From: an uncultured Syntrophobacterales bacterium
Lineage (GTDB): Bacteria > Desulfobacterota > Binatia > UBA9968 > JAJDTQ01
Length of the DNA stretch: 64,000 bases
Direction of reading: 5' to 3'
NCBI GenBank assembly: GCA_964519455.1
Contig: CAZFIU010000005.1
Location: 3,749-67,748, forward strand
The notes beneath the pieces were generated by a model. It made no database searches. It was not told the origin of the DNA and saw nothing but the letters and a program-made list of their open reading frames with translations. This document shows positions 6,868 to 45,736 of the stretch, piece after piece. Numbering within the stretch: position 1 is the first letter of the stretch; every line of letters starts with the position of its first letter. Made by a program: the position numbers and the translations under genes.

Positions 6868-6895
6868 GGGACCTCCTTGGGCACGCTGGCATGGG

Positions 6896-7742: not shown

Positions 7743-7975
7743 ATTGATATGAAAACAAAATCTTGTTCAATGATTTCTGGTAGTTACGGAATCCCGCTAC
7801 ACCCCAATGAGTCATTCCCGCGGAAGCGGGAATCCAGGGGTGAGGAGGGGCAAGACGGGCGTTCCCCCGCCTCACCCAGCCTGGATTCCCGCTTTCGCGG
7901 GAATGACTCATTGGGGCGTCGGTGCCAGTTCTTGTCCGGGCGATGTTGTGACACAGTCTGTTCCGGGGGAATGAC
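7743..7975. repeat. family-A composite repeat: AT-rich module, inverted pair of hairpin cores, tail unit
   Basis: The order is attgatatgaaaacaaaatcttgttcaatgatttctggtagttacgg, then GTCATTCCCGCGGAAGCGGGAATCCAGG, a centre, CCTGGATTCCCGCTTTCGCGGGAATGAC, and a unit ending GGGGGAATGAC. Confidence 0.85.
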
Positions 7976-8052
7976 GAAAGTGTGCGGTTTGGCGCTTTCT
8001 CCACTCCAACGACGGGTTCAGGCGTGAAAGTACCACCCCCGTCGCGAATGCA

Positions 8053-11000: not shown

Positions 11001-11113
11001 TATAGATCCTCCTCTGGCTCCTCTTGTTCAGCTACTTCTTATTCCTTTTTGGGCAGTTTTGTCCACCGCAAACCATCAGGTCTCACGGCTCCACCGCCAC
11101 GGGCGCCCGGACC

Positions 11114-11301
11114 GTCATTCCCGCGGAAGCGGGAATCCAGGTGGGGTGGAGTGAGGAAACGCCGCGGTAGTGCCCCGCCACCGCCCCTGGATTCCCGCTT
11201 CCGCGGGAATGACGATTCGGGGTGTTGGTGCCGTTTCGTGGCTGAGCGGAGTTTTGCCACAGCCTGTTCCGCGGGAATGACGGAGATGACGGGGGAATGA
11301 C
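11114..11301. repeat. family-A composite repeat (inverted hairpin-core pair plus tail units)
   Basis: GTCATTCCCGCGGAAGCGGGAATCCAGG ... CCTGGATTCCCGCTTCCGCGGGAATGAC is followed by a ..GTTTTGCCACAGCCTGTTCCGCGGGAATGAC unit. Confidence 0.85.
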
Positions 11302-11418
11302 GCGAACAGCGCCGTGTACGGGGCGGTCGGTGCACTCCCCGGGCCAGTGTGTTATGAGAACTCCTGCAACGCAGCGGGTGTGGACCCGCCCCGCGAAATC
11401 AATCCCCGGAGGCAACCC

Positions 11419-15166: not shown

Positions 15167-16198
15167 TCACAGGTCGTACAGCGCCCGCGCGTTCTCCCCG
15201 GTGATCTTGGCGGCGACCGCCGGCGTCAGCCGCGGATCGTTGGCGACGCCGTCCAGGGCGAGCAGCTCGGTGGCGCTGTCGGCGTGGCCGTAGTCGGTGC
15301 CGACCACCAGGTGGTCCTCGCCGGCGGTGTCGATGACGTAGGGGAGGTCGTCGTTGGTCTCGCAGCCGATCCAGATGCGGGTCTGCGCCAGCAGGTCCTT
15401 CTTGCTGAACTCCTTGCCGGTCATGTGGTAGCGCTTGTAGAGGTCGCTCAGGGCGTAGGGGAGCCACTGGGAACCCACCTCCAGGAACGCCATCTTGAGC
15501 TTCGGGAAACGCTCCGGGATCTTGTCCATGACGATGGTGTGGAACGCGCCCACCACCACCAGCTTGAACTTCGAGAAGCCCACGGTCTCGTACTTGTAGT
15601 AGTCGTACAGCACGGGGCTGCCGTTGGAGGAGTGGATGCAGACCGGGATGTCCAGCCTCTCGGCGGCGTCGTAGACGGGATGGAAGTAGGGATCGCTCAG
15701 CAGCCGCTCGCCTTCGGAGCCGCGCATGTAGATGCCCACCGCGCCGTTCTGCTTGGCCGCCCTGGCTTCGTCGTACACCTGGCCGGTGCTCAGGAGCGGC
15801 ACCACCGCCACCCAGCGCAGGCGGTTGTCGGACTGTTTCCAGCATTCCCCCATCCAGCGGTTGTAGCTGCGGCACAGCGCCAGCTCGATCTCGGGCCGTG
15901 GCGTGAGGGGGATGATGAAGATGGTGGGGAAGATGACCTGGATGTCCACCTTCAACTCGTCCATGTGCTTGAGCCGCACTGCCACGTCCCGCAGTTCGCG
16001 GGATTCCGGCGGGGTGTCCTTGCCGACGTTCCGGGACTTGAGCCGCAGGGTGCCGTCCACCAGCCAGTACTCGTCGATTTCGCCGGCGCCGTTGAGGGAG
16101 CCGACGACGTCGGGGCGGTACTTGCGGTCGGCGCCGTCCATGAATTCCCAGGTTTCCTCGGTTTCGAGAACGTGTGCGTCGGCGTCGACTCTGAGCAT
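15167..16198 (-). CDS. amidohydrolase_2 family protein (tandem paralogue 1)
   Basis: The likely start is ATG 16198, giving MLRVDADAHVLETEETWEF. The sequence is highly similar throughout to 16316..17347. Confidence 0.8.
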   Translation of the reverse strand: MLRVDADAHVLETEETWEFMDGADRKYRPDVVGSLNGAGEIDEYWLVDGTLRLKSRNVGKDTPPESRELRDVAVRLKHMDELKVDIQVIFPTIFIIPLTPRPEIELALCRSYNRWMGECWKQSDNRLRWVAVVPLLSTGQVYDEARAAKQNGAVGIYMRGSEGERLLSDPYFHPVYDAAERLDIPVCIHSSNGSPVLYDYYKYETVGFSKFKLVVVGAFHTIVMDKIPERFPKLKMAFLEVGSQWLPYALSDLYKRYHMTGKEFSKKDLLAQTRIWIGCETNDDLPYVIDTAGEDHLVVGTDYGHADSATELLALDGVANDPRLTPAVAAKITGENARALYDL

Positions 16199-16315
16199 TT
16201 TCGTTCCTTTTCGCCTTGAAGGACTCACACCGATGGGGTTTGCAGCCCGGTTCCGGGAGGACCGAAGCCCAAGACCGCTAACTCATGAGTGCGGACGAAA
16301 CGGGGAGCAGGTCAC

Positions 16316-17347
16316 TCACAGGTTGTACAGCGCGCGAGCGTTCCCTCCGACGATCTTGGCCGCGACCTCCGGGCTCAGGCGCGGGTCGTTGGCGACGCCG
16401 TCGATGGCCAGCAGCTCGGTGGCGCTGTCGGCGTGGCCGTAGTCGGTGCCCACCACCAGGTGGTCCTCCCCGGCGTTCTCGATGACGTAGGGAAGATCGT
16501 CGGTGGTCTCGCAGCCGACCCAGATCCGGTTCCTTGCCAGCAGTTCGTTGCGGTTGAGCCCCTGCTCCTTTATGTACGGGCGTTTCTGCAGGTCGGTCAG
16601 CGCGTAGGGCAGCCACTGTGCGCTGACCTCGAGGAACCCCATCTTGAGTTTCGGGAATCGCTCGGGGATGCCGCCCGCCACGATGGTGTGGAACGCTCCC
16701 ACCACCACCAGCTTGAACTTCGAGAAGGCCACGGGCTCGTACTTGTAGTAGTCGAACAGCACGGAGCTGCCGTTGGAGGCGTGGATGCACACGGGGACGT
16801 CCAGTCTCTCGGCGGCGTCGTACACCGGGTAGAAGAAGGGGTCGTTCAGCAGCCGTTCACCCTCGGAGCCGCGCATGTAGATGCCCACCGCGCCGTTCTC
16901 CCTGGCCAGCCGGGCTTCCTCGTACACCTGCTCCGGGCTCAGCAGCGGCACCACCGCCACCCAGCGCAGGCGGTTGTCGGACTGTTTCCAGCATTCTCCC
17001 ATCCAGCGGTTGTAGCTGCGGCACAGCGCCAGCTCGATCTCGGGCCGTGGCGTCAGCGGGATGATGAAGATGGTGGGGAAGATGACCTGGATGTCCACCT
17101 TGAGCTCGTCCATGTGCCTGAGGCGGGCGGCCACGTCGCGCAGTTCCCGGGACTCCAGCGGCGTGTCCTTGCCCACGTTGCGGGTCTTGAGGCGCAGGGT
17201 GCCGTCCACCAGCCAGTACTGGTCTCCGGACCCGGAGCCGTTGGGGGAGCCCACGACCTCGGGCCGGTACTTGCGGTCGGCGCCGTCCATGAACTCCCAG
17301 GTCTCCTCGGTTTCGAGAACGTGTGCGTCGGCATCGATTCTGAGCAT
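16316..17347 (-). CDS. amidohydrolase_2 family protein (tandem paralogue 2)
   Basis: ATG 17347 follows GCGGAGGAAACCGAA and gives MLRIDADAHVLETEETWEF. The 657-aa ORF in the track is an upstream out-of-context extension. Confidence 0.8.
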   Translation of the reverse strand: MLRIDADAHVLETEETWEFMDGADRKYRPEVVGSPNGSGSGDQYWLVDGTLRLKTRNVGKDTPLESRELRDVAARLRHMDELKVDIQVIFPTIFIIPLTPRPEIELALCRSYNRWMGECWKQSDNRLRWVAVVPLLSPEQVYEEARLARENGAVGIYMRGSEGERLLNDPFFYPVYDAAERLDVPVCIHASNGSSVLFDYYKYEPVAFSKFKLVVVGAFHTIVAGGIPERFPKLKMGFLEVSAQWLPYALTDLQKRPYIKEQGLNRNELLARNRIWVGCETTDDLPYVIENAGEDHLVVGTDYGHADSATELLAIDGVANDPRLSPEVAAKIVGGNARALYNL

Positions 17348-17436
17348 TTCGGTTTCCTCCGCTAAAGGATTGGGTGGACAGAGGCCGCGATCCTCGGCCT
17401 GATATCCGTGTCCTGTATCCGAAGTCCGGAAACGAA

Positions 17437-18252
17437 TCAACGCCCCGTCCACACCGGCGGGCGCTTCTCGACAAAGGCCCGTGGCCCCTCCTTGCTGTCC
17501 TCGGTGGTGAGCACGAAAGCGGCGAGGTCCGACTCCAGCCGCAGCGCCTGGTCCAGCGGCAGGTCGACGCCCTTGTGCACCGATTCCTTGACGTAGCGCA
17601 GGGCCAGCGGCGCGCCCTTGGCGAAGGAGGCGGCCATCTCCTCGCCCGCCTGCGTCAACCCGTCCACCGCCACCAGCTTGTTGACGAGCCCGATGCGGTA
17701 CGCTTCCGCGGCGTCGATCAGGTCGCCCGAGAGGCAGATCTCCAGCGCCTTGGCCGGGCCCACGATGCGCGCCAGCCGCTGGGTGCCGCCGGACGCCGGC
17801 ATGAAACCGCGCCGCACCTCGGTGACCCCGAGCCGCGCGTTGTCCGCGGCGATGCGGACGTCGCAGGCCATGGCGATGAGCAGGCCCGCCCCCACCGTGT
17901 AGCCGTGCAGCAGCGCGATGGCGGGCTTCTGCAACAACGCAAAGGCCTCGATGGGCGAAGGGCCGCCCGGCAACTGCCTGGCCTGACGCGCCTCCAGCGG
18001 CGACGCCTGCGCCTCGGCCGGGACGGCGTTGCGTTGCGCGCGCTCCTTCAGGTCCCCGCCCACGGTGAAGGCCTTCTCCCCCGCCCCCCGGACCAGCACC
18101 ACCTGCACGCCCCGGTCCGCCTGCGCCCGGGCGCACATCCCGACGATGCCGAGGCGCATCTCTTCGTCGATGGCGTTCAGCGCCTCCGGGCGGTTGAGGG
18201 TGATCCAGGCGGTCTGTCCCTTTACTTCGTAGAGAACCTTGTCGTCGCTCAT
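17437..18252 (-). CDS. enoyl-CoA hydratase/isomerase (crotonase) family protein
   Basis: ATG 18252 lies 8 nt after GGAGG. MSDDKVLYEVKGQTAWITLNRPEALNAI and the ..GAGEKAFTVGGDLKE.. oxyanion region are present. Confidence 0.85.
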   Translation of the reverse strand: MSDDKVLYEVKGQTAWITLNRPEALNAIDEEMRLGIVGMCARAQADRGVQVVLVRGAGEKAFTVGGDLKERAQRNAVPAEAQASPLEARQARQLPGGPSPIEAFALLQKPAIALLHGYTVGAGLLIAMACDVRIAADNARLGVTEVRRGFMPASGGTQRLARIVGPAKALEICLSGDLIDAAEAYRIGLVNKLVAVDGLTQAGEEMAASFAKGAPLALRYVKESVHKGVDLPLDQALRLESDLAAFVLTTEDSKEGPRAFVEKRPPVWTGR

Positions 18253-18284
18253 TCGCGTAGCCTCCATGACGTAGCCTCGCATCC

Positions 18285-18420
18285 GTCATTCCCGCTCTCT
18301 TCCGTCATAGCCGCGGAACAGGCTGTGTCAAATGGAATCCCGCTACACCCCAATGAGTCATTCCCGCGAAAGCTTGCCCTCGACCCCGATCGGGGGCGGG
18401 AATCCAGGGGTCGGGAGGGG
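18285..18420. repeat. family-A repeat with nested AAGCTTGCCC..GGGGGC insert
   Basis: GTCATTCCCGCGAAAGCTTGCCCTCGACCCCGATCGGGGGCGGGAATCCAGG. The same insert is seen at 22592-22651. Confidence 0.8.
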
Positions 18421-18453
18421 CCAGCCCGGGGAGCGGGAGTCCACGGGCGATGC

Positions 18454-19464
18454 TCAAGCCGCCCTGTCGAGCCGGTAGACCCCTACGGCCGTGTCGTGGA
18501 ACAGCGCCTTCCGCTCCGCCTCGGAGCACCCCCGTGCCACGATCTTGAACGAGTTCCACACGGCAACATAGGAATAAGATACCCGGTCCACCGGGAAGTT
18601 GCTTTCGAACATGCAGCGGTCGGCGCCGAACTTCTCGATGCAAAACTCGAAGTACGGCCGCATGGCCTCCGCCAGTTCGGCGGAACCGGGCCGGGACTCG
18701 CGCGTGTGCCAGTCGTAGCCCGAGCGCAGTGAACCGACGCCGCCCAGCTTGAGTGTCACGTTGGCGCATTCGGACAGCGCGGCGATGTCGGTGCTCCAGG
18801 CCCGGAACACCTCGTCGCGCCGTCCCTCGTAGGGGCCGAGGCCCAGCGGTCCGCCGATGTGGTCGAGGATGATGGGCAGGTCCGGGAAGTCCCGCGCCAA
18901 CTCCACCAGCTCCGGGAGCTGCGGGTGGTAGAGCCAGGCGTCGAAGCTCAGCCCGTAGCGCCGCAGGCACCCCACGCCCCTGCGCACCGCGGCGTCCCGC
19001 AGCAAGCCGGGCCGCTCCACGCTCCGGAACGCGTCCGAGGCGTCCCACATGGTGGAATAGCGGATGCCGCGCAGCCGGGTGGGGCCGGCCTCCAGGTGGG
19101 CTTCGAGGACCGCGGCCACGCCGTCGCCCAGGGCCAGGTCGGCATAGGCCACGATGGCCGCCGCCACCACGGCGGGGTTGTCCGCGCGCGCGTTCCCGGC
19201 CGCGATGCCCTCCAGGAACTCCGTCTCCCCCACCGGCCGCAACTCCGGCGGCCCGGTCTCCCGGTACATGGCGCCGCACTCCACGGCCACGCTGGAGACG
19301 ACGCGATGGCCGCCGGTGGCGTCGCGCAGGAAGTCGTTCAGCAGATAGGGGTTGGCCGGACGCCGCCACAGGTGATGGTGCGGGTCGCAGATGGGGAGGT
19401 CGGGCCGCAGGGGTGTTTCGTCGGTTAGGTCGGTTGTCGGATGGGTCACGTTCGTAGCCCTCAA
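18454..19464 (-). CDS. amidohydrolase_2 family protein
   Basis: The protein is 336 aa. ICDPHHHLW carries the N-terminal HxH metal motif. The start codon is uncertain: TTG 19464 or GTG 19449. Confidence 0.75.
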   Translation of the reverse strand: MRATNVTHPTTDLTDETPLRPDLPICDPHHHLWRRPANPYLLNDFLRDATGGHRVVSSVAVECGAMYRETGPPELRPVGETEFLEGIAAGNARADNPAVVAAAIVAYADLALGDGVAAVLEAHLEAGPTRLRGIRYSTMWDASDAFRSVERPGLLRDAAVRRGVGCLRRYGLSFDAWLYHPQLPELVELARDFPDLPIILDHIGGPLGLGPYEGRRDEVFRAWSTDIAALSECANVTLKLGGVGSLRSGYDWHTRESRPGSAELAEAMRPYFEFCIEKFGADRCMFESNFPVDRVSYSYVAVWNSFKIVARGCSEAERKALFHDTAVGVYRLDRAA

Positions 19465-19625
19465 CTCACCGTCATCCTGAGACTTGCTCTTGGCTTGGTG
19501 TTGTCCTCCGGTTCATTGCCACGCCCTTACATGCTCACCTTGATCGGGTGCGGCCCTGGAGTGCGTGGAGCTGTTGCTCCCTTGATGGCGAAGCGCAACA
19601 AGTCAACAGCCGGTCCAGGATTGTG

Positions 19626-20408
19626 TCATGCCGACATGTTCTCATTCAGGAAGCGTGTGATTCGCTCGCGGTTCGCCGTAAGGCTGGAAAACTGCTTTTC
19701 GCATACGTCACTGAAGCGTGCCAGCACTTTACGATTGATGGACTCCTGATCTTCAAAGATGGCCAGGGACCGGAACGGGAGTCCCCACTTCTCGAACTGG
19801 AGCAAAGCGATCGTGGCATCACGTGTCCTGCCGTCACTGGTGAGCCCGTGAACAAAAAATGGCCTGGAAGTCCCATTGATACGGCAATCTACCGGGTACA
19901 TTCCACTGGGATCGTGCTCGGGATCGCTCCAATCGAAGGTCCGGCGCTCCTCGGGGGCCGCCTCGCTCAGCAAATGGCGAAAATCGTCCATGAAGGTGGA
20001 CCGAGCGCGCTCTCGCGACAGAAAGGAGACGTCGGTGATCTTGAGCAGTCCCTGAACAAAAGAATACAGTGCGTCCCCGTAACGTTCCTCGGGGACTTCG
20101 AGTACTAGCTCGCCGTCGTGATCCTCAATTCCAAAAGTAGACAGGGAGTTGGAGATGATTGTCTGACGGGTTCCTCGATGCAGATCTTTCTCGTCGATGT
20201 CGTAGGTCAGGTGCATATAAGTGTGCGCCTCGTCGGAGAGCACCCACCGCGTACCCTCTTTCTTCAGGACGATGGCCAAGTGATCCCCGTCTTCGAACAA
20301 GAATGGCGTGAATACTCGGAAACGGTTGATGCCTTCCGCCGACAGCCGGATCTTCTGCGACACTTTCTGGTGGAAATCCTGTTCTATGGTTTCAATTGGC
20401 ATCGCCAT
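19626..20408 (-). CDS. hypothetical protein, possibly DUF1828/DUF1829-type
   Basis: The protein is 260 aa and the region is visibly lower in GC than its flanks. [35 protein letters not shown] resembles what I recall of DUF1828, but this memory is unverified. Confidence 0.6.
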
Positions 20409-20883
20409 CCTCCTCGAAGAGGTCGCCTTGTCGTTCGACCGGCACGTCGAAGATCGCGTCCGCTAGTAGGCAGCGAAGGGCGTCGTAGAGGGTGCCGTAA
20501 CGATCCGTCGGCTCGGCGTAGGCGTCCTCCCGCGTGCCGATCTCCTGATACCGCTCTGTCGCATGGTGAATGTGAAAGTCGTAGAATGACTCACCTTCGA
20601 TGTGGTTGGTGTGTTCGTGACTCCTGCCGTTGTAACGGCAGAGCCGAAATACCTGATTCGAGCGCGGGACGAGTACGGCAAGAATGACGGAGAAGTCCAG
20701 GGCGTTGATGCTGCTTTCCCTGAGAATGACGCGGAATTCGCTTCCGGCGTCGCCGGTGACATCTAGATGCTGCTCTAGGTGACCGCGCTTGGACACCATC
20801 CGCGTACGTCGTCGCCAGTCTGCCGGCAAGGGCTTGCGTTCTCGTAGAAGCGACTCGATCTCTTGATCGGTGTATGTCACCAC
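20392..20883 (-). CDS. hypothetical protein with His-rich motif
   Basis: The protein is 163 aa with a GTG start. It overlaps the downstream gene by 17 nt. It carries the motif [32 protein letters not shown] recognised no family. Confidence 0.6.
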
Positions 20884-21262
20884 TATCGTTTACTCCGATG
20901 TGTCGGGCGAGTCACCGCCTTGCCGGATCCGCGCGATAGAGAATCCCGTAGATTGTACCTCATGCTCCTTTGAAACGAAATTTCCTTAGGTGTACCGACG
21001 GCCGCGCAGGTTTCTCATACGACGGTCTGTCCTTTAAGTCGATGTGGGAGTTGACCGGACGCGAGTGGGGGTCCGGCGCGTGCGGCCTCTCACAGGCCCT
21101 TCAACCCGGACGCCGGGTTTTCTGATAGCAGTCGGGCGACACTTCCCGGCTTTGATCGATCTTAGGAGACGCCATCGTTTCCGATGCTCGCACTGCGCCG
21201 CCGGGTTTGGTAGACAGGGATTGCCGCGAATCCGATACCCGTCCACACGCCGAGGAGGTCAC

Positions 21263-22516
21263 GTGGATTTCGAGCTGGCCCACTACCCTGTCCGGTCCCT
21301 TTCCTGGGGCGCCCACACCGAGTATCGGGAAGGCGAACTCGTTGTCAACCAGGAGGCGTTGCGCGCCGAGGTGCTCACGGAGCCGCTCATCGCCGACGTG
21401 GAGTTGAGCATCGTGCGGCCGGGGGAGCGCGCGAGGGTGCTGCACGTGGCGGACATCGTCGAGCCGCGCTGGAAGGAGGGCGCCTTCGGCGGGGCGTTCC
21501 CCGGGAGCCTCGGGGCGCTGTCCCAGTGCGGTGCGGGTCGCACCCATGCGCTGGACGGCGTGGCGGTGGTGACGTCCGGGTCGCTGCCGCGGTCGGAGGA
21601 GGCCGTCATCGACATGTGCGGCCCGGGCAGCGAGCTGAGCCGCTTCGGGCGCATGCCGGGGCTGGTGGTGGTGCCCAGGGCGCGGGAAGATGCCGATCCG
21701 GGCCAGTTCGGCCTGGCGCTCATGCGCGCGGGGCTGCGCGCGGCGGTGTTCCTGGCGGAGACCACGAAGCGCGCGGCGCCGGCGCGCACGGAAGCGTTCT
21801 CGCTCGACTGGCGCCGGCCTGCTTCGGGTCTGCCGCGCATCGGTTATCTCAGCTTCGCCTACTCCCACGGCATCGGCCGCCAGAAGCTCTTCTACGGCAC
21901 CAGCACCAAGGACATCGTACCGAGCATCGTCCACCCCAACGAGATCCTGGACGGCGCGCTGGTGAACGACGGCTATACCAAGCCCACCAAGAACGCCACC
22001 CACGACATCCTGAACCATCCCCTGATCCGGGACCTGTACCGGCGGCACAACGACACCCTGGTGTTCGCCGGCATGGTGCTGGCGAACCACTACGCCACCT
22101 ATGACGAGAAGGCGGCCGCGGCCTTTCACGCGGCGCGGCTGCTCAGGCACGTGGTGGAGGCGGACGGCGTGGTCATCACCAAGGACGGCGGCGGGCAGGC
22201 GGACGTGGACCTGATGCTGGCCTGCCGGGCGTGCGAGGAGGCGGGGCTGCGCACGGTGCTGGTGGCCAAGGAGGAGTCCGGCGGCGACGGCCCGGCGCTG
22301 GTGGACGTGGCGCCCCAGGCGGACGCCATGGTGAGCGTGGGCAACTGTCCCGAGAAGGTGCGGCTGGAGGGACCCATGGGGCGGGTCCTCGGCGGCGACG
22401 CGTTCCTCGGGGCAATCCAGGGCGACGTGGCCGGGACGGTGGAGATTCCGGTGCAGAACATCATCGGCGCCATCGACCCCATCGGCGGCTCGACGCTGAC
22501 GGCCCGACCGGGATAA
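21263..22516 (+). CDS. grdE: glycine/sarcosine/betaine reductase component B alpha/beta proprotein-like (GrdE-like)
   Basis: GTG 21263 lies 4-5 nt after GAGGAGG. MDFELAHYPVRSL... and IVHPNEILDGALV...NHPLIRDLYRRH resemble the GrdE/GrdG/GrdI family. The gene sits immediately upstream of the GrdB-like gene. Confidence 0.7.
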   Translation: MDFELAHYPVRSLSWGAHTEYREGELVVNQEALRAEVLTEPLIADVELSIVRPGERARVLHVADIVEPRWKEGAFGGAFPGSLGALSQCGAGRTHALDGVAVVTSGSLPRSEEAVIDMCGPGSELSRFGRMPGLVVVPRAREDADPGQFGLALMRAGLRAAVFLAETTKRAAPARTEAFSLDWRRPASGLPRIGYLSFAYSHGIGRQKLFYGTSTKDIVPSIVHPNEILDGALVNDGYTKPTKNATHDILNHPLIRDLYRRHNDTLVFAGMVLANHYATYDEKAAAAFHAARLLRHVVEADGVVITKDGGGQADVDLMLACRACEEAGLRTVLVAKEESGGDGPALVDVAPQADAMVSVGNCPEKVRLEGPMGRVLGGDAFLGAIQGDVAGTVEIPVQNIIGAIDPIGGSTLTARPG

Positions 22517-22570
22517 ACGGGCTTACCATGGAGGCAACACAGGATTGTCGGACACCGCCGTACACGAAAC

Positions 22571-22771
22571 GTCATTCCCGCCCCACAATACGTCATTCCC
22601 GCGAAAGCTTGCCCCCGACCCCGATCGGGGGCAAGCTTTCGCGGGAATGACGTATTCGTAACGTTTTCGCCTGGAGTGTTTTGACACAACCTGTTTCGCG
22701 GGAATGACGTTTCAAGGGGTTGTTGCCTCTCTTGAATCGAGTTTTGGTACAGCCTGTCCTGCCGGAATGAC
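22571..22771. repeat. family-A repeat cluster including a 60-nt perfect hairpin (22592-22651)
   Basis: GTCATTCCCGCGAAAGCTTGCCCCCGA-ccccga-TCGGGGGCAAGCTTTCGCGGGAATGAC has a 27-bp perfect stem. It is followed by two ..CCTGT(T/C)..GGAATGAC tail units. Confidence 0.9.
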
Positions 22772-22834
22772 GATTTTGGACGTGGGCGGGCCGGTTGGGT
22801 GACAGGGAGGCAACCGAGGCTCAGGGAGGACCCC

Positions 22835-24124
22835 ATGAAGCGCATCGTCCACTACGTGAACCAGTTCTTCGCCGGCCTCGGCGGCGAGGAGAGCGCGGGT
22901 ACGCCGCCGGGCGCCCTGGACGGCGCGGTCGGGCCAGGGAGGCTGCTGCAATCGCTCCTGGGCGAAGGCGCCGCCATCGTCACCACCGTTTACTGCGGCG
23001 ACGACCACTTCTCGGAGAACGAGGAGGAGGCCACGGCGCGGCTGCTTGAACTGGTGAAGCAGGCGGAGCCGGATCTGCTGTTCGCCGGGCCGGCCTTCGG
23101 CTCGGGGCGCTACGGTCTGGCGTGCGCGGGGGTGTGCCGGGCGGTGGGCGCCGAGTCGGGCATCCCGGTGCTGACCGCCATGGCGCCGTCCAACCCCGGT
23201 GCCGATGCGATCCGGCGCGACATCCCGGTGGTGGAAACCGGGGAGTTCTCCGGCGACATGCGCGCCGCCATCGGGGCCTCGGCCCCGCTGATCGTGAAGC
23301 TTCTCACCGGCGAAATCGTCGCTCCGGGCGGCGAGGAGGGGCTGCTGCCGCGCGGTGGGCGCTGGAACACGCGGGCGGCCCGGCCGGCGGCCGAGCGTGC
23401 CGTGGACCTGCTGCTGGCGAAGCTCGCGGGTGGGCCGATGGAGACGGAGATCCCGCTGCCGCCCTTTCAGGAGGTGGCGGCGGCGCCGGGGATCGGCGAT
23501 CTCGGGCACGCGAAGATCGCGCTGGTCACCACCGGCGGCCTGGTGCCGCGGGGCAATCCCGACGGCATCAAGTCGTACCTGTCCACCCACTTCGGCGCCT
23601 ACCACGTGAAGGAACACGAGCGGCTCACGGGGGATGAGTTCGAGTCGGTGCACGGCGGCTTCTTCACCGCCATGGTGAACGAGGACCCCAACCGGCTGAT
23701 CCCCCTGGACGTGCTGCGCGACGCGGTGCGCGAGGGCTCCCTGGGCGGGCTGCACGAATATTTCTACTCCACCACGGGCAACGGTACGCCGGTGGAGACC
23801 GCCGCCGACATGGCGCGGGACATCGCGGCGTCGCTGGAGGAGGACAAGGTCGACGGCGTCATACTCACTTCCGCCTGAGGGACCTGCACTCGCTGCGGCG
23901 CGGCGATGGCAAAGGAACTGGAAAGAGCCGGCATCCCCACGGTGCACGTGACCAATCTCGTGTCGGTGTCGGAGAACACGGGCGCCAAGCGGATCATGTC
24001 GGGGCGGGCGATCCCCCACGTCTTCGGGGACCCGTCCCTCGACGCGGACGAGGAGCGCCGGCTACGGCGGCGGCTTGTGGAGCAGGCGCTGGACATGCTC
24101 CGGGAGCAGGAGAGTGGGTCGTGA
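22835..24124 (+). CDS. grdB: glycine/sarcosine/betaine reductase selenoprotein B-like (GrdB-like), with in-frame TGA at 23876-23878 read as selenocysteine
   Basis: ATG 22835 follows AGGGAGGA and gives MKRIVHYVNQFFAGLGGEE. ORFs 22799..23878 and 23906..24124 are in the same frame, separated only by the TGA. The context is VILTSA-TGA-GTCTRCGAAMAKELERAGIPTVHV, which matches the GrdB U-x2-C-x2-C motif. Confidence 0.8.
23885..23911 (+). promoter_or_regulatory. candidate bacterial SECIS hairpin, starting 7 nt after the UGA
   Basis: I folded UGCACUCGCUGC-GGC-GCGGCGAUGGCA by hand. It forms about 12 bp with two single-nucleotide bulges and a G-rich apical loop. Confidence 0.45.
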
Positions 24125-24159
24125 AGGTTTGGCCCCTCTCCACCCCTGGACGTGTTCGT

Positions 24160-24209
24160 GATGTTCGTGCCTCACGAGTTTCGACACGGCCTGTTTCAGC
24201 GGGAATGAC
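24160..24209. repeat. family-A tail-unit fragment
   Basis: ..CACGAGTTTCGACACGGCCTGTTTCAGCGGGAATGAC resembles the GTTTTGCCACAGCCTGTTTCGCGGGAATGAC units. Confidence 0.6.
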
Positions 24210-24301
24210 CGTAAGAGCGGCGCGGCAGCGGGGCAATCTATCCTTGACATGCGCGCCGTAAAGTCGGTTAATCGCACGATCAAACCCGAAGGAGGCAATG
24301 C

Positions 24302-25345
24302 ATGTTTAGGCGAATACTCTTTCTGATGGCAGGGTTGATGCTGCTGACGAGCCCTGCGTGGGGCGACGCGGTGGCGGATTTCTACAAGGGCAAGCAGCTC
24401 CGTATTGTCGTGGGTTATGGTCCGGGCGGCACCACCGACCTCACCACCCGGCTCGTCGCCCCGGTGCTGCACAAGTACATTCCCGGCAGTCCCCGGATCG
24501 TGGTCCAGAACAAGGCGGGCGGCGGCAGCGCGCTGGCGGCCAACACGGTGTTCAACAACGAGCGCCGGGACGGCACGGTAATGGCGGCCATCAGCAGCAG
24601 CCTCGTGATGAAGCAGGCTCGCGGCGTGGCGGGGATCAAGTTCGACGGCAGGAAGTTCAACTGGGTCGCGAGCGCGTTCCGGGCCAACTCCGCCTGCGCG
24701 GTGCGGCTGGATTCGGGCGTCAAGACTTTCGCCGAGGCGGTGAAGACCAAGAAACAGCTCATCGTGTCGAGCTTCGACAAGGGCGGCCTGTCCCACCTGG
24801 AGCCGATCTTTTTCAACGCGATCTTCGGCAGCAACTTCAAGGCCGTCACGGGATTCCCCAGCGGCGGCGCGCAGCGTCTGGCGGTGAAGAACGGCGAGGT
24901 CAACGGCTTCTGCACGACGTTCCAGACCATGGCCAGCACGGAGATCGCCATGTTCGAGGGCGAGGGCAGGTGCTGCCGGGTGCTGATCATCGCCGGCGAG
25001 GGGGAGGACCACCCGCTGCTGAAGGGCGTGCCCGCGGCCGAGGTGCTCGCCAAGGAGCAGGGCAAGAGCAAGGATGAGATCGCCATGCTGAAGGCGATGA
25101 ACGCCGCCAACCAGATCAGCATCGTCCACACGCTGCCGCCGGGAGTGCCGAAAGACCGTGTCGAGGCCCTGCGCGACGCCTTTGCCAAGGCGTACAACGA
25201 CCCGCAGGTCCAGGCGCTGGCCAAGAAGCAGAACCGCAATCTGCAGCCCAGGCGGGGCGACGGCGTGGCCAAGATCGTCGAGGATCTGCTCAACACTCCC
25301 GAGCCCCTCATGGACAGGATCAAGGCCCTCATCGACAAGGGCTAA
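24302..25345 (+). CDS. tctC: tripartite tricarboxylate transporter substrate-binding protein (Bug/TctC family)
   Basis: It has a signal peptide MFRRILFLMAGLMLLTSPAWG. VVGYGPGGTTDLTTRLVAPVL...VVQNKAGGGSALAAN is the family-typical N-terminal motif. Confidence 0.8.
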   Translation: MFRRILFLMAGLMLLTSPAWGDAVADFYKGKQLRIVVGYGPGGTTDLTTRLVAPVLHKYIPGSPRIVVQNKAGGGSALAANTVFNNERRDGTVMAAISSSLVMKQARGVAGIKFDGRKFNWVASAFRANSACAVRLDSGVKTFAEAVKTKKQLIVSSFDKGGLSHLEPIFFNAIFGSNFKAVTGFPSGGAQRLAVKNGEVNGFCTTFQTMASTEIAMFEGEGRCCRVLIIAGEGEDHPLLKGVPAAEVLAKEQGKSKDEIAMLKAMNAANQISIVHTLPPGVPKDRVEALRDAFAKAYNDPQVQALAKKQNRNLQPRRGDGVAKIVEDLLNTPEPLMDRIKALIDKG

Positions 25346-25504
25346 GGGCCGGCGGCGTGCCGTCGAATCAACCGTGGGCGATACCGGGATCCGGTCCGCG
25401 TCCGCCGCTGGCGGTCGTGGGCCGGGCTCCGGTCGCCCTGCTCCACTAGAACGCGAACTCTGACCTGAAGACGGCGAACCAACCGTTCCCGTCGCCATAA
25501 CGCC

Positions 25505-27001
25505 ATGTTGGAAGCCTTCATCACGGGACTGCTCCAGGTATTCGATCAGACCACGTTCCTGCTGATGGTGATCGGCATCTTCCTGGGGTTCGTCGTCGGG
25601 ATCCTGCCCGGCATCGGCAGCCCCGGGGCGGTGGCTCTCATGCTGCCGTTCATCTTCGAGATGGACCCGGTGCAGGCGTTTGCGTTCCTGCTCGGGATGT
25701 ACGCGGTCACCGGCACCACCGGCGACATCACCTCGATCCTGTTCGGCGTGCCCGGCGAGGTGGTGTCCACGGCCACCATCATCGACGGCCATCCCATGGC
25801 CAAGAAGGGCGAGGCCGGCCGCGCCCTGGGCGCGGCGCTCATGAGCTCCCTGGTGGGCGCCATCGTCGGCGCGTTCTCCCTGGCGTTGGCCATCCCCATC
25901 GTCACCCCGCTGGTGCTGTCCTTCAAGTCGCCGGAGTTCTTCTCCCTGGCGATCCTGGGGATCTGCTTTCTCGCGGCGCTGAGCGGCGACAACAAGCTCA
26001 AGGGGGTGCTGGCGGGCGGTTTGGGGCTCGTGCTGTCCACCGTCGGCCTCGATTACCAGGAGAACATCGAACGCTATACCTTCGGCCTCGTGCACCTGTG
26101 GGAAGGGGTCGGCCTCATCGCCGCGGCCGTGGGGCTGTTCGCGGTGCCGGAGATCGTGGAGCTGTGGGTCAAGGGCTCGGCCATCGCGGATACCAAGGTG
26201 GGCAAGCTGGGCGGCGTGTGGCAGGGGGTCAAGGACACCTTCATCCACATCGGCCTCACCGTGCGCTGCAGCATGATAGGCACCTTCTTCGGCCTCGTCC
26301 CCGGCGTGAGCGCCGCCCTGTCCCAGTGGGTGTCCTACGCCCACGCGGTGCAGAGCACCCGGGACCGCAGCGGCTTCGGCAAGGGCGACGTGCGCGGCGT
26401 CCTGGGGCCGGGCGCGGCCAACAACTCCGGCATCGGCGCCGCCATGATCCCGACGGTGGCCTTCGGAGTGCCGGGAAGCGCCACCACCGCCATCCTGCTG
26501 GGAGCCTTCATCATCCAGGGGCTTCAGCCGGGGCCGAAGATGCTCACGGAGCATCTGGCCCTGACCTTCTCGTTCGTCTGGCTCATCGTCATCTCGAACA
26601 TCATCACCGTGGCGCTGTGCCTGATGTTCCTGAAACACTTGGCGAAGATCACCCAGGTCCGCGGCTCGCTGTTGATTCCGTCGCTGTTCATGCTCATCTT
26701 CCTGGCGGGTTTCGCCAACACCGGTTCCTACTTCGCCATGGCCACCACCCTGGTGTTCGGTGTGATGGGCGTGATCATGGTGAACCACGGCTGGCCGCGC
26801 CCGCCGCTGGTGTTGGGGCTGGTGCTCGGGTCCCTGGTGGAGCGGAACCTGTTCATTTCCTACGAGATCTACGGCCTCTGGTTCCTGACGCGTCCCATCG
26901 TCATGGTGACCTTCGGTGTCGCCCTGGTCGTGATCTTCCTGCCCGGGTTGCAGGATTGGATGGCGAAGCGGGCCAAGCTCCAGGAGGAGCCGGGTGCGTA
27001 A
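25505..27001 (+). CDS. tctA: tripartite tricarboxylate transporter large permease (TctA family)
   Basis: The protein is 498 aa and polytopic. GILPGIGSPGAVALMLP and the overall layout are typical of TctA. Confidence 0.8.
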   Translation: MLEAFITGLLQVFDQTTFLLMVIGIFLGFVVGILPGIGSPGAVALMLPFIFEMDPVQAFAFLLGMYAVTGTTGDITSILFGVPGEVVSTATIIDGHPMAKKGEAGRALGAALMSSLVGAIVGAFSLALAIPIVTPLVLSFKSPEFFSLAILGICFLAALSGDNKLKGVLAGGLGLVLSTVGLDYQENIERYTFGLVHLWEGVGLIAAAVGLFAVPEIVELWVKGSAIADTKVGKLGGVWQGVKDTFIHIGLTVRCSMIGTFFGLVPGVSAALSQWVSYAHAVQSTRDRSGFGKGDVRGVLGPGAANNSGIGAAMIPTVAFGVPGSATTAILLGAFIIQGLQPGPKMLTEHLALTFSFVWLIVISNIITVALCLMFLKHLAKITQVRGSLLIPSLFMLIFLAGFANTGSYFAMATTLVFGVMGVIMVNHGWPRPPLVLGLVLGSLVERNLFISYEIYGLWFLTRPIVMVTFGVALVVIFLPGLQDWMAKRAKLQEEPGA

Positions 27002-27539
27002 CCGGACGGATATCGGCATCGGCGTGCTGCTGGTGACGCTTCTCTCCTGGGCGGTGTGGGAGGCGCAGGGGTGGCCGGCGCGCACGAGGTTCTTCCCCCT
27101 GGCCATCGGCTATCCGGTGCTGGCCATGGCGGTGATGCACCTGGCCTACAGCTTGTGGCTCGGGCTGCGCCCCCTCGGGTTCGAGCAGGGTCCGGCCGCG
27201 CCGGACCCACTGGCGGAAGCCGGGCCGATTCTCGATCCCGCGGTGGTGCGCAAACGCACGCTCGAGATCTCGTTCTGGGCCGTCGCCTTCGCGGTGGGGC
27301 TGTACCTGCTGGGGTTCAAGGTGGGCGGGCTGGTCATCCCGACGGTCTTCCTCCACTACCAGGCGCGCGAGACCTGGTGCACCAGCCTCTTGTACAGTCT
27401 GGGCGTTTACGTCTTCTTCAAGATCGGCCTGGAAGAGGCGCTGTCGTTTCCCCTGCCCGCCGGCCAGATCGCCTACGGCCTCGGGCTCTACTCCTTCGAT
27501 TCCTACCTGATGGATCCGGTCCTGAACCTGTTCCGGTAA
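26994..27539 (+). CDS. tctB: tripartite tricarboxylate transporter small membrane subunit (TctB-like)
   Basis: The protein is 181 aa with about 4 TM segments and a GTG start that overlaps the tctA stop by 8 nt. The call is by context. Confidence 0.6.
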   Translation: MRNRTDIGIGVLLVTLLSWAVWEAQGWPARTRFFPLAIGYPVLAMAVMHLAYSLWLGLRPLGFEQGPAAPDPLAEAGPILDPAVVRKRTLEISFWAVAFAVGLYLLGFKVGGLVIPTVFLHYQARETWCTSLLYSLGVYVFFKIGLEEALSFPLPAGQIAYGLGLYSFDSYLMDPVLNLFR

Positions 27540-30627: not shown

Positions 30628-30639
30628 TAAGGTGACCGG

Positions 30640-30987
30640 ATGGCCGCGGGCGTGTTCCTCGAGCCGGTGGAGGTGAACGACACCCCGGGCGTGCCGGCGG
30701 AGCTGGCGCGGAGCCCCGATACGTTCGCCTTGCGCGTGCGCGGCGATTCCGCGATCGAGGAAGAGATCCGGGACGGGGACCTGATCCTGGTCCAGTCCGC
30801 CCCCGCCGCTCGCGACGGCGATACCGTGGTGGCCGTGGTTCGGGGCGAGGCGACCGTCAAGCGGTTCTCCCGCGAGGACGGAAGAGTGCTGCTGCGTCCC
30901 GCCGGCGAACGGCTGGAGCCCATCGTGGCCGAGGAAAAAGACGTGGAGATCCGCGGCGTGGTGGTCGCGGTGATCCGGAAATACTAG
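30640..30987 (+). CDS. LexA/UmuD-type S24 peptidase domain protein lacking a DNA-binding domain
   Basis: The protein is 115 aa. MAAGVFLEP matches the LexA VAAGEP cleavage loop, RGDSA supplies the Ser nucleophile, and EATVKRF supplies the Lys. It looks collinear with the E. coli LexA C-terminal domain. Confidence 0.8.
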
Positions 30988-31097
30988 CCTGCTGCCCGTG
31001 TCCGTGTCCCCAACGGGCTCCTCTCCCCGCGGGCACCCCACCTCTCCCGATTCCGAAGCAGAGACGGATCGAGGGCAACGAACAGGAGAAACCGTCG

Positions 31098-33140
31098 ATG
31101 AACCGCCTGGCCAACGAGACGAGCCCGTATCTGCTGCAGCACGCCGGCAACCCGGTGGACTGGTACCCCTGGGGCGAGGAGGCCTTCGCCAGGGCGCGGG
31201 CGGAAGACAAGCCGATCCTCCTGAGCATCGGCTACTCGGCCTGCCACTGGTGCCACGTGATGGAGCACGAGTCCTTCGAGAACGAGGCCATCGCCGCGTT
31301 GATGAACGAGGACTTCGTCAGCATCAAGGTGGACCGGGAGGAGCGTCCCGACCTTGACGAAATCTACATGAACGCCGTGCAGATGCTCACCCGGCGGGGC
31401 GGCTGGCCCATGACCGTGTTCCTCACTCCCGAAGGGAAACCCTTCTTCGGCGGCACCTACTATCCGCCCGAGGACCGGCAGGGCATGCCGGGCTTCCCGC
31501 GCGTGCTCCAGGCGGTGGTGGAAGCCTACCGGAACAAGCCGCAGGACGTGGCCCGGAACGTCGACCAGATCGTGGCCGCGCTGGATCGCATGAACGTGCT
31601 CAGCGAAACGGGTCAGGAGATGAGCGTGGAGGCGGTGACGCGCGGGGCCGAGGGCCTCACGTCCGCCTACGACGCCGCCCACGGCGGCTTCGGCCGCGCC
31701 CCCAAGTTCCCCAACGCCGGGGTGTTCAACCTGTTCCTGCGGGCCCACCGCCTGTCGGGCAACCGGCGCTACCTGGAGATGATCACCGAGACGCTGCGGA
31801 AGATGGCCGAGGGGGGCATGTACGACCAGCTCGGCGGCGGCTTCCACCGCTACTCCGTGGACGACAAGTGGCTCGTGCCCCACTTCGAGAAGATGCTCTA
31901 CGACAACGGCCAGCTCGCGCAGGTCTACGCCGAGGCCTACCGCATCACCGGGGACGGGTTCTTCAAGCGCGTCGTCGAAGAGACTCTGGACTACGTGCTG
32001 CGCGAGATGTGCCAACCCGAAGGCGGCTTCTACTCCGCCCAGGACGCGGACAGCGAGGGGGAGGAAGGCAAGTTCTTCGTATGGACGCGCGACGAAGTCC
32101 TGGAACTCCTCGGCAAGGAGCGCGGCGACATCTTCTGCCGGGTCTACGACGTCACGGACCTCGGCAACTTCGAGGGCAAGAACATCCTCCACCCCATCCT
32201 GACCGTCGAGCAGGCGGCCAAGTACTTCCGCAAGGAGGACGAGGAGATCGAGGCCGTCCTGGCGGAGTGCCGGGCGCGTCTGTTCGAGGAGCGGGAGAAG
32301 CGGATCAAGCCGTTCCGGGACGAGAAGGTGATCATTTCCTGGAACGGCCTGATGCTGTCGGGCGTGGCCGCGGCCTACGCCGTCACCGGCGACGCGCGCA
32401 TCCGGGAGGCCGGCGCCCGCACGGTGGATTTCATCTTCACGCGCATGTTCGAGAACGGCCTGCTGCTGCACACCTACAAGGACGGGCAGGCCAAGCTGCT
32501 GGGTTATCTCGACGACTACGCGTTCCTCGTCGCCGGACTGCTGGATCTCTTCGAGGCCACCTTCGAGCCCGAACTGCTGGAACGTTCCAAGGCGCTGGCC
32601 CGGACCATGACGGAGGAGTTCTGGGACGACGAGAACGGCGGCTTCTTCTACACCGGCAAGTCCCACGAGCAGCTCATCAGTCGCACCAAGCCCGGGTTCG
32701 ACAGCTCCATCCCCTCGGGCAACTCGGTGGCGGTCATGGGCCTGCTGCGCCTCCACCACTACACCGGGGACTCCGACCTCCTCGACCGGGCCGAAAAGAC
32801 CCTGCGCCTGCACTACGACGCCATGGCCAAGGAACCCTTCGGCCTGTCCAACATGCTCGGAGCGCTGGACTACCACCTCTCGCGCCCCGCGGAGATCGTG
32901 CTGGTGGCGGACAGGGACGACGCCGCGGCGGGCGCGCTGGCCGAAGAGATCCGGCACAGCTACCTGCCCAACAAGACGTTTCAGTGGGTCGCCCCCGATG
33001 CCCGGCTGGAAGAGATTTCGCCCCTGCTGGAAGGAAAGACGCAGGTTGGCGGGAGGCCCACGGTGTACGTGTGCCGGAACTTCACCTGCGCGCCGCCGGT
33101 GACGGACTGGGAGGGGTTGAAGCCGCTGCTGGAGGAGTGA
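31098..33140 (+). CDS. thioredoxin-domain protein, YyaL/DUF255 (SSP411-like) family
   Basis: The N-terminus is [60 protein letters not shown], followed by an alpha/alpha-toroid-like C-terminal region. Confidence 0.85.
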
Positions 33141-33173: not shown

Positions 33174-33500
33174 GAATCGTCATTGATATGAAAATAGAAT
33201 TTTGTTCAATGAATTCCGTCAATTACAGAAGGCCGCTACAGCCCGGATCGTCATTGATATGAAAATAGAATCTGGTTCAATGATTTCTGGTAGTTATGGA
33301 ATCCCGCTACACCCCGACGAGTCATTCCCGCGGAAGCGGGAATCCAGGCGGGGTGGGGCCGGGCAATGAGGTCGCCATACCCCCCCACCCCTGGATTCCC
33401 GCTTGCGCGGGAATGACTGGTTGGGGGGCCGGCGCCCCATTTTCATCCCTCTTTGTGTCGGCTGCAAGCCGACATGGGGGATTCCCGCGAAAGCGGCATT
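33174..33500. repeat. family-A composite repeat with two tandem AT-rich modules
   Basis: ATTGATATGAAAATAGAAT..TTCAATGA modules occur at 33182 and 33252. They are followed by an inverted hairpin-core pair at 33321-33417 and a degenerate core at 33474-33500. Confidence 0.85.
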
Positions 33501-38650: not shown

Positions 38651-38794
38651 GGCGTTAAGTCGTGTATCTAACACAGTATTTCAGGATAGGCGAATACGTG
38701 GGTGATGTCGTTGCCGGGAGGCGCCGGACGGACGCGCGATCCGGCCGGATAGGATATAATGGTCCCGGCGATCGAGACGCTGGAGTCCTTCCTG

Positions 38795-40162: not shown

Positions 40163-40211
40163 GTGTCGGTGGGTTGGTTCGTGGAAGGCGGACCGGTAAT
40201 CTGCCACAATC

Positions 40212-43135: not shown

Positions 43136-43159
43136 ATGTTTCGCGGGTTCAGGGTTCGG

Positions 43160-45733: not shown

Positions 45734-45736
45734 ATC

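Follow-up and report, generated by a model that had tools for sequence, protein, structure and literature searches.

A Conserved Pair of GrdE- and GrdB-Like Genes Adjoins a TctCAB Transporter in Binatia and Is a Candidate for a Protein-B-Type Reductase without a Pyruvoyl Site

RESULTS

A GrdE-like/GrdB-like pair precedes tctCAB. We analyzed a 64-kb, G+C-rich (60 to 71%) stretch of contig CAZFIU010000005.1 from an uncultured bacterium of the Binatia, hereafter called the window. It contains two neighboring genes, grdE-like and grdB-like, which encode the two subunits of a protein-B-like reductase of the glycine reductase family, and these are followed by the three genes of a tripartite tricarboxylate transporter (TTT), tctC, tctA, and tctB. 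We propose that the locus encodes a functional selenocysteine (Sec)-dependent reductase of the protein B type with a new specificity, which would act on a TTT-imported carboxylate without forming a Schiff base and possibly without the partner selenoprotein GrdA; we give this proposal about an even chance of being right. The pair probably cleaves the imported compound. The features of the locus are given below in window coordinates, with the basis of each assignment in parentheses.

21263-22516, plus strand: grdE-like, alpha/beta-type subunit of a protein-B-like reductase, 417 amino acids (aa) (GTG start after GGAGG; PF09338)
21965-21994, plus strand: NDGYTKPTKN loop, codons N235 to N244, equivalent of the Asn-Cys self-cleavage/pyruvoyl site (alignments)
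22835-24124, plus strand: grdB-like, selenoprotein subunit, ATG start, 429 aa (PF07355, TIGR01918)
23876-23878, plus strand: in-frame TGA, Sec348 (frame continues for 81 conserved codons)
23879-23916, plus strand: bacterial selenocysteine insertion sequence (SECIS) element directly 3' of the TGA (Rfam RF01990, SECIS_4)
24302-25345, plus strand: tctC-like, periplasmic substrate-binding protein of a TTT (PF03401, PDB relatives, signal peptide)
25505-27001, plus strand: tctA, large membrane subunit (PF01970)
26994-27539, plus strand: tctB, small membrane subunit, overlapping tctA by 8 nucleotides (nt) (PF07331)
22517-22834, no strand: 318-nt spacer of repetitive extragenic palindromic (REP)-like elements (repeat search and junctions of relatives)
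21184-21262, plus strand: conserved 5' leader or promoter-proximal region of grdE-like, including the GGAGG ribosome-binding site (identity to relatives)

Both subunits are full length, and the GrdB-like protein is a conserved selenoprotein. The initial annotation of this DNA, made from the letters alone, had recognized only two component-B-type genes at the locus, and Pfam and NCBIfam searches identified both as full-length family members. GrdE-like matched PF09338 over residues 1 to 414 (profile positions 1 to 425 of 426; E = 1.4e-98), and GrdB-like matched PF07355 (positions 2 to 346 of 347; E = 1.1e-125) and TIGR01918, the model of the selenoprotein B subfamily, with 492 bits for a cut-off of 65. 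The GrdB-like frame reaches position 24124 when the TGA at 23876-23878 is read through, and the active-site motif thus translated, S-A-U348-G-T-C351-T-R-C354, is the UxxCxxC signature of GrdB-type selenoproteins. The covariance model SECIS_4 aligned over its entire length (positions 1 to 38 of 38) immediately after the TGA, with 40 bits for a gathering score of 38 (E = 9.6e-06). We base the SECIS assignment on this match; the region does fold into a hairpin, with a fold z score of 0.18 that is no better than that of shuffled sequences.

The closest homologues of GrdE-like (83 to 97% identity) were found in 20 species-level genomes labelled Candidatus Binatia, some of which stand under the older labels Deltaproteobacteria, Syntrophobacterales, or Thermodesulfobacteriota and many of which are complete chromosomes of 4 to 5.7 Mb. 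The TGA and the SAUGTCTRCG motif are identical in 21/21 genomes, across which the SECIS sequence is nearly invariant. Median ratios of nonsynonymous to synonymous substitution (dN/dS), calculated against the window, were 0.185 for grdE-like, 0.180 for grdB-like, 0.18 for tctC, 0.10 (0.095) for tctA, and 0.21 for tctB. The 20 genomes differ by a proportion of synonymous differences (pS) of only ∼0.33, so they are not independent samples. By their substitution pattern, grdE-like and grdB-like are intact and under purifying selection. Pseudogenization of the pair, which the initial annotation had named, together with a complete grd operon elsewhere, as a finding that would speak against its reading, did not emerge, as dN/dS is 0.18 and the TGA, the 81 codons downstream, and the SECIS element are kept in 21/21 genomes.

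In the databases, the GrdE-like entries are labelled "hypothetical protein." The public entries for the clade's GrdB-like protein (P0193 to P0235) are unnamed, and all have 347 aa and end at the Sec codon; in some canonical GrdB entries, the TGA is translated as Trp (TSTWGTCTRCG).

Tyr238 replaces the pyruvoyl-precursor cysteine of GrdE. In GrdE-like, the segment NDGYTKPTKN comes directly after IVHPNEILDGALV. It had been suggested that the Asn-Cys self-cleavage site of GrdE lies here and that its Cys is missing. Two independent alignments, one of 24 database homologues and one of 88 loci, placed the site at this position: the canonical HPNE-LDGA-VSGNC-VSACDKNTT is aligned with HPNEILDGALVNDGY--TKPTKNAT of the window, and in Clostridioides difficile GrdE it is Cys242, at the N-terminus of the cleaved fragment, that gives rise to the pyruvoyl group (PMC9908766). 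Tyr238 (codon 21974-21976) occupies the position of the precursor Cys, and the second conserved Cys is absent as well; no Cys at all is found between residues 120 and 320. The loop NDGYTKPTKNATHDIL is identical in 21/21 Binatia sequences, and the motif GY-T[KR]P is common to the sister sequences L024, L025, P0043, and L257.

The lack of these cysteines, regarded in the initial annotation as noncanonical, has precedents, since GrdI and FarE are devoid of both processing cysteines and are not proproteins (PMC10838667). Because both self-cleavage cysteines are absent, as in GrdI and FarE, GrdE-like is predicted from its sequence to persist as a single 45-kDa chain that has no pyruvoyl group. The absence of the Cys marks a class of protein B for substrates that do not need Schiff-base activation. 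Speculatively, Tyr238 may bind or protonate the leaving group.

An AlphaFold2 (AF2) model of GrdE-like was obtained with a predicted local distance difference test (pLDDT) score of 89.6 and a predicted TM (pTM) score of 0.91. A Foldseek search of the PDB with this model gave nothing significant (best E = 0.018, TM score of at most 0.21), and neither subunit had a relative in the PDB by sequence search. As Foldseek found no PDB match, the PF09338 family is without a solved structural representative, and the fold therefore gave no mechanistic lead.

The pair forms a separate clade of the protein B superfamily. Both proteins scored below the cut-off of every specific family model. GrdB-like reached 449.3 bits with glycine GrdB (TIGR01917; cut-off, 602.2), 484.6 bits with sarcosine GrdF (NF040794; cut-off, 800), 425.6 bits with betaine GrdH (NF040795; cut-off, 775), and 76.5 bits with PrdB (TIGR04483; cut-off, 300), and GrdE-like reached 244.4 bits with sarcosine GrdG, which is a processed proprotein (NF040793; cut-off, 780), 150.6 bits with FarE (NF053623; cut-off, 675), and 32 bits with PrdA (TIGR04480; cut-off, 700). 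As a control, GrdB from a complete Bacillota cluster (L029) passed TIGR01917 with 675.9 bits. The GrdH cut-off was reached by none of ten partner GrdB-like proteins, and the matches labelled "betaine reductase" by the Joint Genome Institute (JGI) were either contig-end fragments or the Cys form of another clade.

A neighbor-joining tree that included the GrdE-like proteins of 68 further loci grouped the proteins with an SGNC site (from Bacillota, Synergistota, Halanaerobiales, and others) in one clade. The phylogenetic placement that the initial annotation had advised separates the window clade from this monophyletic group and sets it beside two metagenomic sequences, L024 and L025, which have the G-Y-T-[KR]-P motif, are orphan pairs too, and adjoin ABC-transporter genes. 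By model scores and tree, the window pair is a further, unannotated clade of its own in the protein B superfamily.

A third large clade, which comes from soil and groundwater metagenome-assembled genomes (MAGs), is named "MFSYS" for the sequence of its loop; seven residues of the loop are deleted, and the GrdB partner carries UGSSTRC. No GrdA, GrdC, or thioredoxin (Trx) was found near the pair in its ∼21 loci, and about half of these lie near TctC or TctA. MFSYS loci are L023, L037, L052, L054, L055, L058, L059, L062, L064, and L068 to L071, and further ones are L073, L078, L079, L083, L087, and L088; two MAGs of this clade carry GrdA and GrdC on other contigs (L138 and L093). In relatives that are 65% identical, loop and Sec motif are retained in a different genomic context, with biotin-carboxylase components beside the pair in L257 and the pair alone in L258. 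Tyr or another residue also replaces the Cys in clades with GrdA, GrdC, and Trx alongside (L030, L031, L067, L075, and L082), which indicates that the loss of the Cys and the loss of the partners are separate events.

The TctCAB transporter accompanies the pair in all relatives. The initial annotation had named tctC, tctA, and tctB as the next genes downstream on the same strand. This assignment holds for TctA by Pfam (PF01970; E = 2.1e-120), while those of TctB and TctC are marginal, with 25.5 bits for TctB (PF07331; gathering score, 29.1) and 26.3 bits for TctC (PF03401; marginally under the gathering score of 27). TctC is backed by its PDB relatives, the terephthalate-binding protein TphC (8hka; E = 3.4e-11) and the Bug-family protein 2dvz (E = 4e-11), which we take to be the glutamate-binding BugE. 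It also has a signal peptide ending in ...SPAWG and a PGGTTD motif.

The order grdE-like, grdB-like, tctC, tctA, tctB is kept in 20/20 relatives, with TctA identities of 90 to 99%, and the genes past tctB vary between the 20 genomes. A survey of how often this pair occurs together with TTT genes, another suggestion of the initial annotation, thus found tctCAB with the pair in all 20 relatives; TTT genes were also found near other noncanonical clades. Our literature searches turned up no report that connects a TTT system with a Grd-type selenoenzyme. Five relatives have a second tctC paralogue (63 to 66% identical) directly after tctB (L003, 16073-17113; L005, 16105-17139; L007, 16015-17055; L012, 16562-17602; L013, 16662-17702), where the window has thiD.

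The spacer between the two genes is a recent repeat insertion. The 318 nt between grdE-like and grdB-like (22517-22834) are filled with repeat elements, as had been noted, and contain 4 to 5 copies of a palindromic element with the core CGTCATTCCCGCG and a perfect 32-nt inverted repeat at 22587-22656. Within the window, this core was counted 22 times, always in intergenic DNA, for an expectation of 0.38. Copies resembling REP elements or miniature inverted-repeat transposable elements (MITEs) lie at 1876, 5936, 7810-7976, 11113-11302, 18284-18368, 22570-22709, 33320-33418, and 53869-54228, and an additional REP-like copy was read by eye near 24195.

Among the 20 relatives, the insertion is common only to the closest one, L001. 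In 11/20 relatives, the junction is TAG-GGAGGCAAG-ATG, of 9 to 11 nt, such that the stop of grdE-like runs into the ribosome-binding site of grdB-like. The ancestral junction GGGAGGCAAC is duplicated in the window, at 22527-22543 and 22803-22819, and the two copies flank the insertion. The comparison of junctions indicates that the spacer is a recent, lineage-specific insertion of mobile repeats into a pair that was ancestrally translationally coupled. The suggestion that the spacer fills the place where canonical clusters have grdA fails on the same count: since 11/20 relatives have the tight junction, the spacer is not a vacated grdA slot.

The leader at 21184-21262 is 96% identical to those of L001 and L002 and 85% identical to that of L004, and the 1.73 kb upstream of it are specific to the window. 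No sigma-70 consensus was found on the plus strand, and a promoter and terminator scan gave nothing exceeding background.

GrdA, GrdC, GrdD, and Trx were not found near the pair. The initial annotation had listed no grdA, grdC, or grdD at the locus, and the searches within the window agree. tblastn with GrdA, GrdC, GrdD, and Trx from complete clusters found none of them in the 64-kb window, and Pfam scans of ∼50 of its open reading frames (ORFs) detected no GrdA, GrdC, GrdD, or thioredoxin. The same tblastn queries found none of the four in the loci of the 20 relatives with 10-kb flanks.

GrdA has an active-site motif, C-F-V-U-T-A-A-G, that is nearly invariant across phyla, and we scanned the DNA of 185,579 genomes for it. 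A narrow scan (G+C-rich codons), which was complete, gave 83 matches; two soil Binatia (L182 and L243) were among them, but no chromosome of the clade was. A broad scan (G/C-ending codons, ∼42% complete) gave at least 120 matches, and among those listed were two soil Binatia and none of the clade. The coverage of ∼42% is deduced from 35/83 narrow-scan matches having already been seen in the broad scan; an independent estimate gave 3/6. In a GrdA protein profile search, the best 120 of 2,881 matches were all on short contigs. GrdC was found within 8 kb in 133 of 165 GrdA loci, and a GrdB/E pair within the same distance in 100 of the 165, so GrdA is usually located beside its partners. Taken from these motif and locus searches, the evidence is suggestive of a clade without GrdA, and we consider it rather unlikely that the clade has a canonical GrdA.

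Among the clusters of complete type, those from G+C-rich non-Firmicutes (L136, L182, L138, L185, and others) have GrdA and GrdC with or without Trx. GrdD was not within reach in loci of the L136, L182, L138, and L185 type and was seen only in Bacillota- or Synergistota-type loci (L029 and L060). Two Dehalococcoidia MAGs, L122 and L186 (OY282365.1), carry GrdB-GrdE-GrdA clusters, and their name and accession format is like that of the Binatia chromosomes, possibly reflecting the same kind of host metagenome; a single community may therefore harbor both complete and orphan systems of the Grd type.

Neighboring genes. Two further features lie upstream of the operon.

15170-19464, minus strand: three Amidohydro_2 paralogues and an enoyl-CoA hydratase, divergent from the operon (Pfam)
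19449-21183, no strand: window-specific 1.73-kb insertion between the divergent blocks, outside the system (absent from relatives; PF08861)

The Amidohydro_2 paralogues are located at 15170-16282, 16316-17347, and 18454-19464 and the enoyl-CoA hydratase gene at 17437-18282, all on the minus strand, and this block is syntenic with the operon in 17 to 19 of the 20 relatives. A fourth Amidohydro_2 (PF04909) paralogue at 9942-11027 brings the number to four within 10 kb. In the relative L257 (65% identity), grdE-like is immediately preceded, in the same orientation, by a different Amidohydro_2 gene. We considered it as an orthologue of the upstream amidohydrolases of the window and rejected this, as it is not orthologous to them; the link between amidohydrolase and reductase is therefore weak. 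The 1.73-kb insertion has a lower G+C content, contains a DUF1828 gene (19629-20408, minus strand; PF08861, E = 1e-25) and a second ORF, and is absent from L001, L002, and L004. Elsewhere, the window encodes an autotransporter (1939-4860), a phytochelatin-synthase-like protein (6097-6903), and a DUF255 thioredoxin-domain protein (30636-33137), and it contains an origin-type region (38753-53790) with mnmE, mnmG, and parB plus the ATP synthase operon.

DISCUSSION

Proposed function. In the mechanism that we propose, the periplasmic TctC-like protein would capture a carboxylate and TctAB would import it. With no carbonyl cofactor in the enzyme, the substrate would not be activated as a Schiff base, and a good leaving group would therefore be needed on the carbon beside the carboxylate; this could be a quaternary ammonium, a sulfonium, or a halide, as in betaine or fluoroacetate. 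The selenolate of Sec348 would attack this carbon and expel the leaving group, yielding a Se-carboxyalkyl selenoether that Cys351 and Cys354 might resolve within the enzyme, as proposed for D-proline reductase. Internal resolution appears most likely because GrdA, GrdC, GrdD, and Trx were not found nearby and the motif scans detected no GrdA in the clade. The reduced acid would then be released, and the Se-S or S-S bond left behind would be re-reduced by the general cellular thiol system. Such an enzyme would be a catabolic or detoxifying bond cleaver and not an ATP-yielding Stickland reductase.

From the MAG names and the literature, we infer that the window belongs to the sponge Binatota clade. 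Sponge tissue becomes anoxic at times, and for this reason an oxygen-sensitive selenoenzyme would be compatible with an aerobic host. The literature describes the sponge Binatota (order Bin18, formerly "Deltaproteobacteria bin18" or UBP10) as aerobic methylotrophs or methanotrophs and as pigment producers (PMC8262859, PMC9999580, PMC8163846), and the lineage is reported to be abundant in marine sponges.

The proposal also has a bolder form, which we put forward tentatively: the pair might be a selenoenzyme that works on its own, without GrdA and GrdC, and splits an imported, possibly host-derived alpha-substituted carboxylate in sponge-type Binatia. Betaine, a sulfonium compound, or a halogenated acid could be examples of this carboxylate, and the reaction would, no less tentatively, take place outside Stickland fermentation. 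The initial annotation had left two alternatives, namely, that the partner proteins are encoded elsewhere or that this is a diverged GrdBE-like system linked to the TTT. The second is now the better supported, by the separate clade, the scores below all equivalog cut-offs, the missing Cys, the presence of tctCAB in 20/20 relatives, and the lack of a GrdA motif; the first is less supported.

Several points weigh against the proposed function. To our knowledge, the established ligands of TTT binding proteins are carboxylates and acidic amino acids and do not include betaines. The synteny was seen among fairly close relatives of one order and supports functional coupling only moderately. Codon usage limits what the GrdA scans can find: the pattern matched ∼3/8 of the independently found G+C-rich grdA genes in the narrow scan and ∼5/8 in the broad one, and, as the genomes are not independent (pS of ∼0.33), a shared nonmatching codon would hide grdA in all 20. 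The UxxCxxC motif is by itself no sign of independence from GrdA, because FarB, which uses GrdA, is devoid of the CxxC. Orphan pairs of other clades (L055, L064, L043, and L076) have GrdA and GrdC elsewhere in their genomes (L138, L093, L185, and L105), and several protein B complexes are described as feeding one A/C system (PMC10838667).

The last two points bear directly on another explanation, that the pair is a satellite protein B whose Se-carboxymethyl intermediate is passed to proteins A and C (with thioredoxin) encoded elsewhere, in an arrangement as in Synergistota and Clostridia with multiple protein B complexes, yielding acetyl phosphate and ATP under anoxic conditions. Many bacteria do have multiple protein B complexes, and farEB lies apart from grdA (PMC10838667); four MAGs with neighborless pairs hold GrdA and GrdC elsewhere, as listed above, soil Binatia have GrdB-GrdE-GrdC-GrdA clusters (L182), and GrdB-like keeps the full UxxCxxC of GrdA-dependent GrdB. 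However, in the ∼20 genomes of the clade, many of them complete chromosomes, the GrdA Sec motif was detected neither by the complete narrow scan nor by the ∼42%-complete broad one, although these scans found GrdA in other G+C-rich taxa; none of GrdA, GrdC, GrdD, and Trx was found within 10 kb in 20 loci or in the 64-kb window, and the lineage is described as an aerobic methylotroph (PMC8262859, PMC9999580). We regard the satellite arrangement as unlikely.

A glycine-betaine reductase analogous to GrdHI, which would supply trimethylamine to the methylotrophy of Binatota, seems to us quite unlikely. It would agree with an unprocessed alpha subunit, as in GrdI, with the possibility that the aromatic Tyr238 binds trimethylammonium, and with the prediction of methylotrophy in Binatota and the richness of sponges in methylated amines (PMC8262859, PMC9999580). 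However, the GrdH score (426 for a cut-off of 775) is no better than those of GrdF (485) or GrdB (449), the importer is a TTT and not of the BCCT/OpuD type found beside betaine reductases (PMC10838667), and Tyr occurs at this site in several unrelated clades as well (SGNY, SSNY, and GANY). The likeness to GrdI, moreover, is a comparison with its description in PMC10838667.

It is very unlikely that GrdE-like matures at another residue, for example Thr239, to give a different carbonyl and Schiff-base chemistry on a primary or secondary amine. The strict conservation of G-Y-T-[KR]-P in the clade and its sisters would fit such a maturation, as would the TctC relatives, which include the Bug-family protein 2dvz, presumably the glutamate-binding BugE. 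However, only Ser and Cys are known to give rise to a pyruvoyl group, and the residue aligned with the Cys is Tyr and not Thr; the Cys-less precedents FarE and GrdI are unprocessed (PMC10838667). Finally, a decaying remnant of a glycine reductase that has lost grdA, with the TGA as a true stop, is hardly credible, even though every database entry gives a protein cut short by gene callers at the TGA and a repeat insertion parts the two genes in the window: purifying selection (dN/dS of ∼0.18 for both genes) and the conservation of the TGA, the 81 codons beyond it, and the SECIS element in 21/21 genomes effectively rule out pseudogenization, and the ancestral junction is one of tight translational coupling.

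Implications of a TTT-linked selenoenzyme. The glycine reductase family has long been viewed as strictly anaerobic, mostly clostridial, and energy conserving, with three or four substrates. The finding in 2023 of C-F cleavage in fluoroacetate showed that protein B modules can evolve new bond-cleaving specificities. If the pair described here works without proteins A and C, the definition of a functional Grd system changes, both in annotation and in selenoproteome surveys. A self-sufficient enzyme would, if real, represent a new functional class in which a GrdB/GrdE scaffold, coupled with a TTT importer, supports a turnover like that of D-proline reductase. Should the substrate be a methylated or halogenated metabolite of the host, the enzyme would contribute a further step to the cycling of carbon and methylamines in the sponge holobiont. 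For finding the substrate, the TctC-like binding protein is a direct experimental starting point. In the literature on Binatota and sponge symbionts we found no mention of grd genes, and reviews of selenoproteomes present GrdA and GrdB as partners in an operon of anaerobic bacteria.

Comparison with known systems. With the betaine reductase GrdHI of Peptoclostridium (Eubacterium) acidaminophilum, the window shares the pairing of a PF09338 subunit with a Sec-containing PF07355 subunit, the lack of processing cysteines in the former, and, as proposed here, a chemistry without a Schiff base. It differs from GrdHI in having a TTT importer and no GrdA, GrdCD, TrxAB, or betaine transporter nearby, in its GrdH score (426 for a cut-off of 775), and in its host, a G+C-rich member of the Binatia and not a Clostridium. 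The FarB/FarE system of Cloacibacillus porcorum (Synergistota) offers another recently recognized specificity in the same family, with a pair located apart from grdA, grdC, and grdD and a FarE that has neither of the two cysteines and is unprocessed. Unlike the window protein, which keeps UxxCxxC, FarB has no CxxC behind its Sec; the FarE model gave 151 for a cut-off of 675, and FarBE is reported to work with GrdA (PMC10838667), whereas GrdA was not detected in the scans of the window clade.

GrdB and GrdE of Clostridium sticklandii and C. difficile belong to the same two Pfam families and have in common with the window pair the UxxCxxC motif, the SECIS element directly after the TGA, and the HPNE-LDGA...KN-T frame around the processing loop. 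In the window, however, Tyr238 stands in for Cys242, the second Cys is missing, and a pyruvoyl group is not expected; the TIGR01917 score is 449 for a cut-off of 602, and neither an intervening grdA nor grdX-trxBA or grdCD is present. The likeness to D-proline reductase (PrdAB) is one that we propose by analogy: the window enzyme, too, may do without proteins A and C and use its own Cys to resolve the selenoether. D-Proline reductase, a selenoenzyme of the same superfamily, works without protein A or C and forms no acetyl phosphate (PMC13188914). In contrast to GrdE-like, PrdA is a pyruvoyl proprotein; PrdC, PrdD, PrdE, and PrdH are absent at the window, and the scores are 32 for a cut-off of 700 with PrdA and 76 for a cut-off of 300 with PrdB.

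As for the transporter, the three-gene architecture, the binding protein with its signal peptide, and the 8-nt overlap of tctA and tctB are as in TTT systems (TctCAB; TphC and Bug proteins), although the binding protein of the window is divergent, just under the Pfam gathering score. Hence, what is known from earlier systems are the components and the unprocessed alpha subunit, and what is new is the probable lack of GrdA and GrdC, the clade itself, the host lineage, and the fixed link of a protein-B-type pair to a TTT.

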